The translations under genes were made by a program, and so were the position numbers. From the NCBI GenBank assembly GCA_031520405.1, contig GCA_031520405.1_4842.1: a stretch of DNA of 64,000 bases; one strand, 5' to 3'. Source of the DNA: a phage. Below, piece after piece: positions 8,211-47,928 of the stretch (positions are counted from its first letter, which is position 1; the number at the start of each line of letters is the position of its first letter). The notes under the pieces are model-generated. The model saw only the letters and a list, made by a program, of their open reading frames with translations. It had not been told where the DNA came from and did no database searches.

Positions 8211-8336
8211 TGGAGCCGTTTTAGGGAGTCGAACCCAAATGCTTGGCCAGCGCTGACCTTACATCCCATCTGACTTAGGCAACCCACCTCTGCTTACTCA
8301 GGAGCTTATCCCCTTTGGACAGTCAGATATAACGGC
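8211..8336 (-). ncRNA. tRNA-like stable-RNA candidate (about 122 nt) with encoded CCA, acceptor-like stem and T-arm, internal 8-bp hairpin, no anticodon arm found
   Basis: plus strand reads TGG-A-GCCGTTT-TAGGG-AGTCGAA-CCCAA; partner TAACGGC at 8330-8336 gives 6 of 7 acceptor pairs; internal IR 8268-8275 with 8321-8328. Confidence 0.3.
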
Positions 8337-8942
8337 TTTGGGATTGGAGGAAGGACTCGAACCTTCTCATGTACGCTCCTGATTTCTCAGAAGTAGTCTG
8401 CTCCCATCGACCTATTAAGTACACGCTCCGCTCATTGTCGGCGGGAGATTATTAATCACACCCTCCCGCCTATTTTAGTGCGCCGAATTTTGTTATGAGG
8501 AATCGGAAGACCTCACTGGTGTATGGCTATTAAGCTACTGCCAGGAACGTGTTATCATTAGCGATTATTTTTGTGGTCAGTTTCTAAAAACCCGCAAAGT
8601 CACGCACAACGAAAACGAAAACCTGTTTGAGTCCTAAACCTACCTGTCTTGGTCTCACATCGCTATGAGTGGCCAGGACTCAAACAGCTTGCCGTTCAGT
8701 GAGTTAACTATACTTTGTAACCCGTTATTGATAAAACCTTTTATTTTGTTGGCGAGGGTGCGGAATCGAACCACACTTCTGAGCGCTACCCCGTGTCACC
8801 AATGCACCACCTCACCATCGATTTGCCGGAACTTACGCATCCGGCCTCGTCCTGTCGGTGTTCTTCTGAATCCGGGAAGATCAGCAGGAACTATGAATCA
8901 AGTTAATTCAACCAACAGGAATCCTCTTGTTGCCCTTTGACG

Positions 8943-8979
8943 CAACATTATGAACCCTCTATGAAGACTCATAATGTTG
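8943..8979. repeat. 11-bp inverted repeat with 15-nt spacer
   Basis: CAACATTATGA at 8943-8953 pairs with TCATAATGTTG at 8969-8979. Confidence 0.85.
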
Positions 8980-9274
8980 TCGGCGTGATGGAGATTAGCG
9001 CCCCCGACCTCCCCTTATATGTTGGTGTCGACTTGCCAACAGGGTGCTCTCTGATTCTGAGCTAATCACGCTACAACAGGGAGTTTCGTTCTCCGACGGT
9101 CAAGTGCGTCCACTGACACCAGCGAGGTGGCTATTACGCCTCTATTCACACAAGCCCCTGAGACTAGGGGTTAACTGGTTTTGGGCTGCAAACCCGACTC
9201 CCACTGTGTTATTTCCCTCATGTTTAATACTTTACCGCAGCCCAGCTAATTTGAAAAGTCCTCTCCCCTTTGAG

Positions 9275-9421
9275 CTACACTGCCCACAGCAGTGCGGACG
9301 AACCTTCACTCAAAACCGGATGCGCCGAAGTGGGCAACTGTTTACCGGACTGATCGGGTAGACCCAGGAGAGAGCAGGTAATCCCGATCAGGAGGATGAG
9401 GAGTAACATCATGTAAAACAT
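9275..9421 (-). CDS. small hydrophobic protein, 48 aa (predicted N-terminal membrane helix); below the ORF-track size cutoff
   Basis: minus-strand ORF MFYMMLLLILLIGITCSLLGLPDQSGKQLPTSAHPVLSEGSSALLWAV; GAAGGGAGGG RBS 5-8 nt upstream of ATG. Confidence 0.55.
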   Translation of the reverse strand: MFYMMLLLILLIGITCSLLGLPDQSGKQLPTSAHPVLSEGSSALLWAV

Positions 9422-9478
9422 AGTGTTCCCTCCCTTCCATGCAACTAACTTTACTACAATTATTTATTGAATAAAGCG

Positions 9479-10048
9479 TTATTTTAACACTTCTAACTTC
9501 ACAACACGACGCAGAAGGTAAACATATTCGCCAGCAGCTTCATGCGTCATATAATGGGTAGAAGGTGTGGAATGATTGTTCTGGGTTTCTTTTAATCCAA
9601 CACGTTCTGCCCAACCATTAATAGAGTTCCCATAGAAACCGATAATCGCGCCAAAATAAATGCGCTGGCTTTCTGGCTCTAAAACATAGTTGACAGTGAA
9701 GCAAATATCAGAACGAATAGACTCCAGTTTCATACCAACACGACCTTCGGAGAATTCGTTACGAACATATAAATGACGGAAACGATCGCGCCGCGCTTGT
9801 GATGATTCTTCCAATTCTTGTCGGAGTGAAGAAGTTACGTCAATATTAAATGAAAATGTTGGATTCTGTAAATCGGAACGGGCCAACTCTAACGCAGATT
9901 CAACAACGCGACGGAAATTGATACTTTTACCTGTCAGGCGTTTCACTTCATCTGTGATTGTTCCAAAAGGGATTTTCGTGGCGCGTTCCCCTTCGTATTT
10001 TGCCAATAAAGGAATAATGTGTTTCATGATTGCTGTGTTAATGTGCAT
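9479..10048 (-). CDS. hypothetical protein, first gene of the minus-strand unit that runs into the RNA array
   Basis: 189-aa ORF; divergent from the plus-strand structural genes. Confidence 0.6.
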   Translation of the reverse strand: MHINTAIMKHIIPLLAKYEGERATKIPFGTITDEVKRLTGKSINFRRVVESALELARSDLQNPTFSFNIDVTSSLRQELEESSQARRDRFRHLYVRNEFSEGRVGMKLESIRSDICFTVNYVLEPESQRIYFGAIIGFYGNSINGWAERVGLKETQNNHSTPSTHYMTHEAAGEYVYLLRRVVKLEVLK

Positions 10049-47199: not shown

Positions 47200-47928
47200 A
47201 TGAACGCACAAATCTACGATGTCCTTTCCTCTGGTAACGCATTTAGCAATCCGCTTCCGTCCCTCTCCGGTCCCTCACAGGATTTAATCACCAGTGGTAG
47301 TACCAATATACCATTGATAACTGCCAACGCGACTCCGGAAATGCAGGTGGCTATGTCAGCAGGTGGATTAACACCAGATAAACTTACAGCAGCCACAAAC
47401 ATGTATAGCTCTGCCAACACGGGGATAACGACACTGAACACATATGGCGACCAGAGCATAAATGAAGCGTATTCAAGAATTGGGACTTCCGTTTCATATA
47501 AATCAGGTTTGAAAAGTATATCACGGGAACCAAACAATTGTGACCTGATCAACAAAGCATTCGGTGTTATTCAGGATCTAGGCCGCCAATGGTTAAACGC
47601 TATGGAAGGCGCTCTCCAGACTGTGACTAACAAGATATCGGAATTGTATGACATGATTATGGAAGGTGCCTCAGAAGGGATGGCAAAACTACAGCAATTG
47701 GCTGCTGAAGTAACAGGACATATCAATGAGGCAATAACCGCCGTCAATGGAGTTATAAATGATATCACCGATGGGATAGCTGCAGAACTTGCTCATATTG
47801 AAAGTATGATCAAAGAATGTCTAAACTTCTCTTTTGCGAATGTTCTTGGAGAATGGGCCAAAGATCTCTGTGCTGGAGGCGTTATTGATAAAATAGGGAC
47901 TCCAGAATTAAAAGAGTCCCTGAAATAA
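47200..47928 (+). CDS. hypothetical protein
   Basis: 242-aa ORF. Confidence 0.55.
   Translation: MNAQIYDVLSSGNAFSNPLPSLSGPSQDLITSGSTNIPLITANATPEMQVAMSAGGLTPDKLTAATNMYSSANTGITTLNTYGDQSINEAYSRIGTSVSYKSGLKSISREPNNCDLINKAFGVIQDLGRQWLNAMEGALQTVTNKISELYDMIMEGASEGMAKLQQLAAEVTGHINEAITAVNGVINDITDGIAAELAHIESMIKECLNFSFANVLGEWAKDLCAGGVIDKIGTPELKESLK

Follow-up and report, generated by a model that had tools for sequence, protein, structure and literature searches.

Phage-encoded tRNA mimics that do not decode have been known since RNA C (species 1, 139 nt) and RNA D (species 2, 119 nt) of phage T4, and after 50 years the function of these RNAs is still unexplained (PMC3014915; PMC9697503). In this virulent myovirus the two form an adjacent non-tRNA pair within the tRNA cluster, after tRNA-Arg, on the tRNA strand and a few nucleotides apart; RNA C combines a mismatched stem of seven positions (CGAUUCG/CGUUUCG) with long hairpins and a T arm (CCGGG-UUCGAAU-CCCGG) near its 3′ end. 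In the t-elements of plant mitochondria and in MALAT1 mascRNA, mimics of the acceptor stem and T arm lie within longer transcripts and recruit tRNA-processing enzymes, by which the ends of adjoining RNAs are set. Mycobacteriophage DS6A encodes a transfer-messenger RNA (tmRNA) reduced to its tRNA-like domain (TLD), with an acceptor stem and a T arm and with neither an anticodon arm nor a message (PMC4131195); a similar TLD-only molecule strongly inhibits tmRNA, perhaps via titration of SmpB (PMC4131195; PMC11915505). Here, we describe two adjacent elements, U1 (8336..8211) and U2 (8433..8339), on the minus strand of a 64,000-nt stretch of Kuttervirus (Ackermannviridae) DNA (GenBank assembly GCA_031520405.1, contig GCA_031520405.1_4842.1; hereafter, the window). 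They are probably two independent modular genes for tRNA-like RNAs that lack an anticodon, of the same kind as T4 RNA C and RNA D.

A first-pass annotation of this DNA, made from the letters alone, had pointed to CCA, acceptor and T-arm motifs at 8211 and 8339, and these are present on the minus strand. The plus strand reads TGG-A-GCCGTTT-TAGGG-AGTCGAA-CCCAA at 8211-8238 and TGG-G-ATTGGAG-GAAGG-ACTCGAA-CCTTC at 8339-8366, the latter corresponding to a minus-strand end of GAAGG-UUCGAGU-CCUUC-CUCCAAU-C-CCA. The acceptor partners matching at 6 of 7 positions, GCCGTTA at 8336 and ATGGGAG at 8407, can also be found. The units are adjacent, as proposed, with a spacer between the CCA of U2 and G1 of U1 that is two nucleotides long (AA, 8337..8338, minus strand) rather than three.

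U1, a tRNA-like RNA gene of 126 nt (GCCGUUA...AAACGGC-U-CCA), is present in 199 phage records. The 5′ strand of its acceptor stem (GCCGUUA, 8330..8336; like all features of U1 and U2 below, on the minus strand) pairs with AAACGGC at 8215-8221 except at position 7, an A-A mismatch. The 63-nt arm II (8267..8329) has a supported 9-bp helix at its base (8321-8329 with 8267-8275, unit positions 8-16 with 62-70); the first-pass annotation had seen this internal hairpin and given it 8 bp. In the place of the anticodon arm is arm III (8237..8266), a 30-nt hairpin with a 2x2 AA/AA internal loop and a GCGC loop. A single U-U mismatch in the stem of the T arm (UUGGG-UUCGACU-CCCUA, 8222..8238) leaves 4 of 5 pairs, and the unit ends in a discriminator U and an encoded CCA (8211..8214).

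Among the 199 copies, 192 have at least 95% identity, the range being 93–100%, with one more copy at 83%, and pattern scans of IMG/VR and metagenomes contributed one further copy. No homologues were found in 5,426 E. coli genomes, and a covariance model of U1 (R1), run with filters off on Limestonevirus, Miltonvirus, Agtrevirus and T4 loci, returned real tRNAs only. In 17 loci, conservation sets in exactly at G1 (8336), despite at least four unrelated upstream contexts. U1 is 96–100% identical in genome pairs in which the adjacent 189-amino-acid gene is ~70% identical at the DNA level and tRNA-Met ~88%; tRNA-Ser is 100% identical in some of these pairs.

An alignment of 16 distinct U1 sequences yields a consensus fold with four elements, namely an acceptor stem of 6–7 bp, a long arm with a 9-bp base, a 30-nt arm and a T arm. 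In the retained helices 99.1% of cells are paired, compared with 34–49% when the partners are slid, and the pairs show four two-sided (compensatory) changes and eight one-sided changes that preserve the pair. Two compensatory pairs are in the basal helix of arm II, one is in arm III, where five other pairs carry one-sided pair-preserving changes, and one is in the acceptor stem, where U5-A becomes C-G in phage MK-13. Since MK-13 also has the 3′ half of the arm II apex replaced, the apical fold of that arm is unsupported. Loops differ among copies by 1-nt indels, and the discriminator is A in YX22 and one metagenome copy and deleted in PC3; the CCA is kept in every copy.

U2, of which there are ~115 copies, comes in two sequence types (A and B) that have in common GAGCGGAGC at the 5′ end, a short UUAA motif, the T loop and CCUCCAAUCCCA at the 3′ end, and nothing more. 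Type A, the one in the window, is a 95-nt tRNA-like cassette (GAGCGGAG...CUCCAAUC-CCA, 8433..8339) delimited by its boundaries and by covariation, and accompanies U1 in about half of the U1-bearing records. Both types fit one three-way junction, composed of a closing stem (GA..GGAG/CUCC..UC), helix 2 with its hairpin, and the T arm. The T arm (GAAGG-UUCGAGU-CCUUC, 8350..8366), described earlier as perfect, is indeed fully paired, and becomes GGAGG/CCUCC in type B through a compensatory A-U to G-C change. Helix 2 (8369..8424), formed by GUGUAC at 8419-8424 and GUACAU at 8369-8374, is GGUGC/GCACC in type B, with two compensatory pairs. Within helix 2 lie a variable region and a hairpin of 7 bp capped by a GAAA tetraloop (8376-8393). 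In total, the two types differ by four compensatory pairs, with 97% of cells paired as against 42–59% when slid. Every copy of U2 keeps its CCA, and the whole cassette is missing in three loci (L004, L011 and L055), with breakpoints at gacaat|GAGCGG and CCCAaa|GCCG. Near-identical hairpins capped by GNRA loops are present in the apical part of arm II of U1 (8287-8304, CUCCUGA-GUAA-GCAGAGG) and in U2 (8376-8393, CUUCUGA-GAAA-UCAGGAG).

The description of U2 as a tRNA-like unit stands, while the 69-nt extent first assigned to it, with ATGGGAG (8407-8401) as acceptor partner, does not carry over to type B: there, AUGGGAG aligns with CAGGCGU and pairing is impossible. Because the cassette boundary and the covariation both favor a start at 8433, U2 is most likely 95 nt long with GAGCGGAG as its 5′ end. 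A 69-nt U2 (8339-8407) is the remaining alternative in type A.

Could motifs this short arise by chance? A loose pattern (T arm, 7 nt, any nucleotide, CCA), scanned on both strands for a total of 128 kb, matched six sites. Five are on the minus strand at 5.7–8.4 kb, and three of these are real tRNAs. Shuffled windows contain a mean of 1.7 sites per whole window, and ~0.05 sites are expected in a 4-kb single-strand region, compared with the two extra sites seen. Conservation and covariation settle the question, and the motif pair is real and non-random.

Both units have an acceptor stem (6 of 7 pairs in U1), a T arm with a UUCRANY-type loop, a discriminator and CCA. Neither has a D arm or a 7-nt anticodon loop, the loops present being GCGC, GNRA or variable. 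The first-pass annotation had recognized no anticodon arm, in keeping with which ARAGORN, at default settings and with introns allowed, makes no call on either unit, and the Rfam tRNA model (RF00005) reports nothing even at E<=10. We considered and rejected an intron-containing or split tRNA, as ARAGORN with introns is silent at default and at an 80% threshold makes only implausible calls, and a relationship to Y RNA-like (YrlA) or other known small RNA families, for which there is no Rfam match. Each unit has an acceptor-type stem on a T arm, followed by N-CCA, with long or unusual arms replacing the D and anticodon arms, and, within the sequence comparisons made here, every testable helix keeps its pairing through compensatory changes. 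The tRNA-like reading is therefore upheld by the T arm, the acceptor-type stem, the encoded CCA, the location on the strand and in the region of the tRNAs, and conservation with compensatory changes.

We also asked whether the units are decaying tRNA pseudogenes, remnants hit by indels and drifting without function. The region is rich in odd tRNA-like elements with or without CCA, the CBA120 genome paper cites "a degenerate tRNA" (PMC3184105), the units are dispensable in many relatives, and the best matches of the U1 model other than U1 are true tRNAs, such as T4 tRNA-Gly (19.6 bits). However, U1 is better conserved than bona fide tRNAs of the same genomes, the arms that have no counterpart in tRNA also keep pairing under substitution, the CCA is kept in all copies, and two divergent U2 types have a single fold in common. 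We consider this origin very unlikely.

It is more improbable still, to the point that we give it almost no credence, that the units are small protein genes. Most GenBank records annotate nothing at U1 and U2, and a few call small coding sequences (CDSs) there as hypothetical proteins, e.g., Matapan CDS 043/044. The only open reading frames (ORFs) over the units encode 33–51 amino acids and start with GTG (8132..8287, 51 amino acids; 8323..8424, 33 amino acids), and neither belongs to a PHROG or Pfam family. The longer ORF continues into the next module, U3, which is swapped for unrelated sequence in relatives, the shorter is abolished in type B U2, and U1 has 1-nt indels. The small CDSs drawn over U1 and U2 in GenBank are due for correction.

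Several observations weigh against the interpretation of U1 and U2 as independent tRNA-like RNA genes. All four compensatory pairs of U1 come from Shigella phage MK-13 alone, the copy with 83% identity, and all covariation in U2 rests on the single comparison of type A with type B. The closing stem of U2 is invariant among copies and, as it never varies, is without covariation support. This stem also carries a 2x2 internal mismatch, and U2 may consequently be a poor substrate for RNase P. Single-sequence folding energies are ordinary for both U1 (z = -1.35) and U2 (z = -1.17). The high identity of U1 may come from recent cassette exchange instead of selection; as cassettes have clearly been exchanged here, the two are inseparable for U1. 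Lastly, many relatives are without one or both units, which must thus be dispensable.

The closest analogue of U1 and U2 is the T4 RNA D/RNA C pair. RNA C is laid out like U1, but no sequence homology can be detected: with the covariance model of U1, RNA C reaches only 5.9 bits, all from the T loop. U1 and U2 both have a T arm and an encoded CCA, whereas RNA C is without an encoded CCA and RNA D without a T arm. A 10-mer, CCUGAGUAAG, is common to U1 and RNA D (rnaD, L037 2554-2672). The DS6A TLD-only tmRNA, which we compared by description only, is like U2 in topology, and U2 lies beside tmRNA-derived sequence; in contrast, U1 is far larger, neither unit has a G3:U70 pair, and the match of both to tmRNA models is confined to the T loop. 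Unlike t-elements and mascRNA, which are eukaryotic or organellar and usually minimal, U1 and U2 have large conserved arms and encode CCA. With the tRNAs for Ser, Asn and Met in the same array the units have in common strand, region, a UUCRANU T loop, a 7-nt acceptor strand and N-CCA, differing in the lack of a D arm and of the 7-nt anticodon loop.

The placement of the units is exact. On the 5′ side, U2 begins 6 nt past the terminal hairpin of a tmRNA-like message region (the core, described below). On the 3′ side, one nucleotide past the CCA of U1, lies U3 (8209..8082, minus strand), a 128-nt module with a 16-bp closing stem (z = -5.6). In EspM4VN and SKML-39 the core hairpin is joined directly to the next module (...CUCCCGCC GAC|AUCUGAGAGGGCA), and the corresponding junction in the window is GAC-AAU-[U2]-AA-[U1]-U-AUCUUUGAGGGCA, which places the insertion point exactly between "CUCCCGCC GAC" and "AUCU..GAGGGCA." Since these two phages join the flanking modules directly, U2 and U1 are insertions into an older arrangement, and the comparison indicates that they are accessory cassettes with exact boundaries between two older modules. 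U3 has itself been exchanged: other phages have a different interior, at times one with a T arm, as in L021, where an 83-nt cassette containing a T arm has taken its place, and compensatory changes preserve the closing stem. U3 is apparently related to a long-stem module behind the tag core of lambdoid prophages and MK54.

The core spans ~300 nt (8736..8438, minus strand) and contains a resume context (AAUAAUC|GCU), a tag and a pseudoknot. It did not figure in the first-pass annotation, and its presence alters the comparisons that U1 and U2 call for. The tag (8562..8527, minus strand), which ARAGORN reports at an 85% threshold and misses at default or 90%, has ten codons and two stops and encodes ANDNTFLAVA (GCU AAU GAU AAC ACG UUC CUG GCA GUA GCU UAA UAG, after AAUAAUC); the E. 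coli counterpart is AAUAGUC|GCA AAC GAC ..., encoding ANDENYALAA and likewise closed by two stops. The Rfam permuted and beta tmRNA models score 20.6 (threshold 47) and 14.6 bits (threshold 84) on the core, below gathering. Across genera the tag invariably has ten codons, with synonymous and conservative changes (variants ANDSEVLMAA, ANDDVVLMAA, ANDNAYLAVA, ANDNAFLMAA and ANDNAYLMVA), a pattern of peptide-level selection across the Ackermannviridae. The core is highly structured, with 17 covarying pairs. Its hairpin-loop pseudoknot (8483-8516, minus strand) changes in a compensatory manner (CCGA:UCGG, CCAA:UUGG, CCAG:CUGG), and its terminal hairpin (8440..8470, minus strand) combines a stem that covaries with an invariant loop, GGUGUGAUUAAUAA. 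We considered this hairpin as an expanded T arm, as an 8-mer is common to it and the T stem of E. coli ssrA, and rejected the idea, since the stem covaries freely in relatives.

Core matches were found in 658 phage records and in 137 of the 5,426 E. coli genomes, and are unannotated in all. Beyond the Ackermannviridae, the core is present in Felixounavirus, where it lies within the tRNA array and has its own sigma-70 promoter, in MK54-type siphoviruses and in the N4-like phage IME11; the E. coli copies are in lambdoid prophages, downstream of the Q antiterminator. No tRNA-like domain with the alanine-type G3:U70 pair was found near the core. Published lists of phage tmRNAs contain only those of mycobacteriophages, Bacillus phage G and the TLD-only DS6A (PMC4131195), a 2025 tmRNA update counts 79 phage sequences (PMC11915505), and a Kuttervirus genome announcement gives zero tmRNAs (PMC10112204). 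In our literature search we came across no account of tRNA-like RNAs or of tmRNA from Ackermannviridae. At the 5′ edge of the core is the motif TTT(T/G)(A/G)TCAATAA (8725-8736, minus strand), which recurs in the window at 47882-47893 (minus strand) and 56441-56452 (plus strand), three occurrences versus 0.12 expected; Limestonevirus and Miltonvirus loci carry it in duplicate. The motif is a possible promoter element of the phage.

If a message region lies next to tRNA-like units, do the two work together? U2 and/or U1 might be the charged tRNA-like half of a split tmRNA, bringing or tethering the ANDNTFLAVA message to stalled ribosomes. The resume context and a selected ten-codon tag lie 90–220 nt upstream on the same strand, the topology of U2 (acceptor, one helix, T arm and CCA, without an anticodon arm) is that of the tRNA-like domain of tmRNA, and our scan detected no separate tRNA-like domain in the tag region. 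ARAGORN at 85% even reports a tmRNA at 8803..8339 that connects the tag with the T arm and CCA of U2, pairing AUUGGUG with the CUCCAAU of U2. This call was rejected, as its 5′ strand belongs to a cassette (8816..8748) that is absent in other U2-bearing phages. Nor is there a G3:U70 pair in either unit, U1 having C3-G70 and U2 a G-A or an internal mismatch there; a scan of 5300-9600 for G3:U70 acceptors gave four chance-level hits, none of them conserved. The tmRNA models RF00023, RF04321 and RF01850 match the units on the T loop alone (10.5 bits), and in U1 the Rfam tmRNA and tRNA T-loop match covers 8224-8236 only. Neither unit contains a resume codon with a proteolysis tag, and the 1-nt indels of U1 break any frame. 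U1 as a mini-tmRNA was likewise discarded, as a frame in arm II (GDKLLSKQRWVA and a stop) is broken by these indels and by the MK-13 replacement.

Because the core occurs without the units (in SKML-39, EspM4VN, Miltonvirus, Felixounavirus, MK54-type siphoviruses, IME11 and lambdoid prophages), the units were inserted into an older arrangement, and U2 type is uncorrelated with tag type, we regard a role as tmRNA partner as unlikely. We assign a similarly low probability to the broader idea of a split trans-translation device in enterobacterial phages. In this scheme the core, with its tag AND....L(A/M)(V/A)A, would be a relative of tmRNA that has kept only the message, and in Kuttervirus the tRNA-like function would come from, or be modulated by, U2 and U1.

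Upstream of the tag, at 8748-8816 (minus strand), is a further tRNA-like cassette of 68 nt (GGUGAGG ... UGUGG-UUCGAUU-CCGCA-C-CCUCGCC-A), with U3-G70 and without CCA. Its acceptor stem is compensatory in relatives, the cassette is missing or internally deleted in several phages, and Miltonvirus has an annotated "tRNA-Cys" of 90–92 nt at this site.

If U1 and U2 are anticodon-less tRNA-like RNA genes, how might their RNAs be made and what might they do? Transcription of the tRNA strand would place both units in one long precursor, with its end at the strong terminator at 5384..5362. An acceptor stem on a T stem-loop followed by a 3′ RCCA is sufficient for RNase P, with a 12-bp stack positioning the cut (PMC11143913); as U1 and U2 contain these parts of a minimal substrate, RNase P is predicted to cut at G8336 and at G8433 (or A8407). 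T4 has dimeric tRNA precursors (PMC11143913), and U2-AA-U1, with its 2-nt spacer, would be a precursor of this kind, with trimming of the 3′ ends back to CCA. The products would be stable tRNA mimics that cannot decode. The most likely role of the mimics, a speculative one, would be to engage or titrate some factor by which the acceptor/T-arm half of tRNA or tmRNA is recognized, for which the inhibition of tmRNA by TLD-only RNA is a precedent, and the units could, as a side effect, define the 3′ end of the upstream tmRNA-like RNA.

Another possibility is that the units are processing signals only, cis-acting tRNA-like punctuation that recruits RNase P and 3′ trimming and so frees the tmRNA-like RNA upstream and the module downstream, with no role once excised. 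They lie 1–6 nt from their neighbors, acceptor, T arm and RCCA are enough for RNase P (PMC11143913), and what comes after the tag core in other phages is either U1, with nothing in between, or a real tRNA that lies beyond a short hairpin or ~230 nt. Plant mitochondrial t-elements would be the precedent. However, a minihelix would suffice for this purpose, and U1 retains 90 extra nucleotides, at 96–100% identity and with compensatory changes in its arms; moreover, SKML-39 and EspM4VN have no such element at the junction. We consider this account unlikely and favor genes whose products are the mimics themselves.

U1 and U2 are in a region of ~4 kb that is nearly without ORFs and also holds the tRNA genes. 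Around the units, ~3 kb of the window is 99–100% identical to Kuttervirus phages such as BRM 13314, CBA120 and S117, with ~100% identity to CBA120 at this locus. ARAGORN detects three tRNA genes, all on the minus strand and all confirmed by Rfam: Ser (5698-5786), Asn (6454-6529) and Met (6943-7018). From ~9400 down to 5384, the minus strand has hardly any ORF of more than 80 amino acids, and at 5384..5362 is a strong intrinsic terminator (minus strand; 9-bp stem with six G-C pairs, U-rich tail) that probably ends the transcript of the entire tRNA and noncoding RNA island. Taipeivirus, Agtrevirus, Limestonevirus and Miltonvirus all have an equivalent gene-poor gap, from the 189-amino-acid gene to tRNA-Met. 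A 2-kb region without genes was pointed out in the CBA120 genome paper, which also mentions "a degenerate tRNA" (PMC3184105); this "empty" region is densely filled with structured RNA modules.

Other elements of the island deserve mention. At about 5606-5694 (minus strand) there is a fourth tRNA, found by Rfam at a relaxed threshold (5609-5694; 48.7 bits, tRNA model), with an insertion of 15–22 nt in the anticodon loop and a TCA tail in place of CCA; when introns are allowed, ARAGORN makes it a tRNA-Pro(agg) interrupted by an intron of 15 nt, and its SKML-39 counterpart ends in ACCA. Two oversized tRNA-like elements, at 5445-5598 (154 nt) and 6316-6446 (131 nt), both on the minus strand, have 7/7 acceptor pairing and a T arm and lack CCA; their conservation in other genera is 75–99% and 91%, respectively. 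Inverted repeats in the ORF-free region at 7335-7426 (25-nt arms, 88% complementarity) and 7798-7933 (22-nt arms, 95%) suggest additional structured RNA modules. Outside the window, a CCA-ended tRNA-like element of 189 nt (GTTCCCG ... GGGGG-TTCGACT-CCCTC-AGGGAAC-A/G-CCA) is present in L010, L017 and L019 (e.g., L017 6766-6954) and is kept in Limestonevirus, Agtrevirus and one Kuttervirus-like locus.

U1 and U2 provide a second case of non-decoding phage tRNA mimics, unrelated to that of T4 and far better sampled: it extends over ~200 genomes, comes in two cassette types and offers exact boundaries as well as covariation. Comparative studies and deletion genetics become feasible in Kuttervirus phages that are used therapeutically. 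The tmRNA-like message element beside them has been missed by standard annotation and is common to several unrelated phage families and to E. coli prophages. If the core and the units were to form a split device, the phage would re-tag proteins from stalled ribosomes during infection, or block their tagging. If it is true that the units act on trans-translation or on host defenses that target the acceptor end, phages would have in them a counter-measure of a new class.

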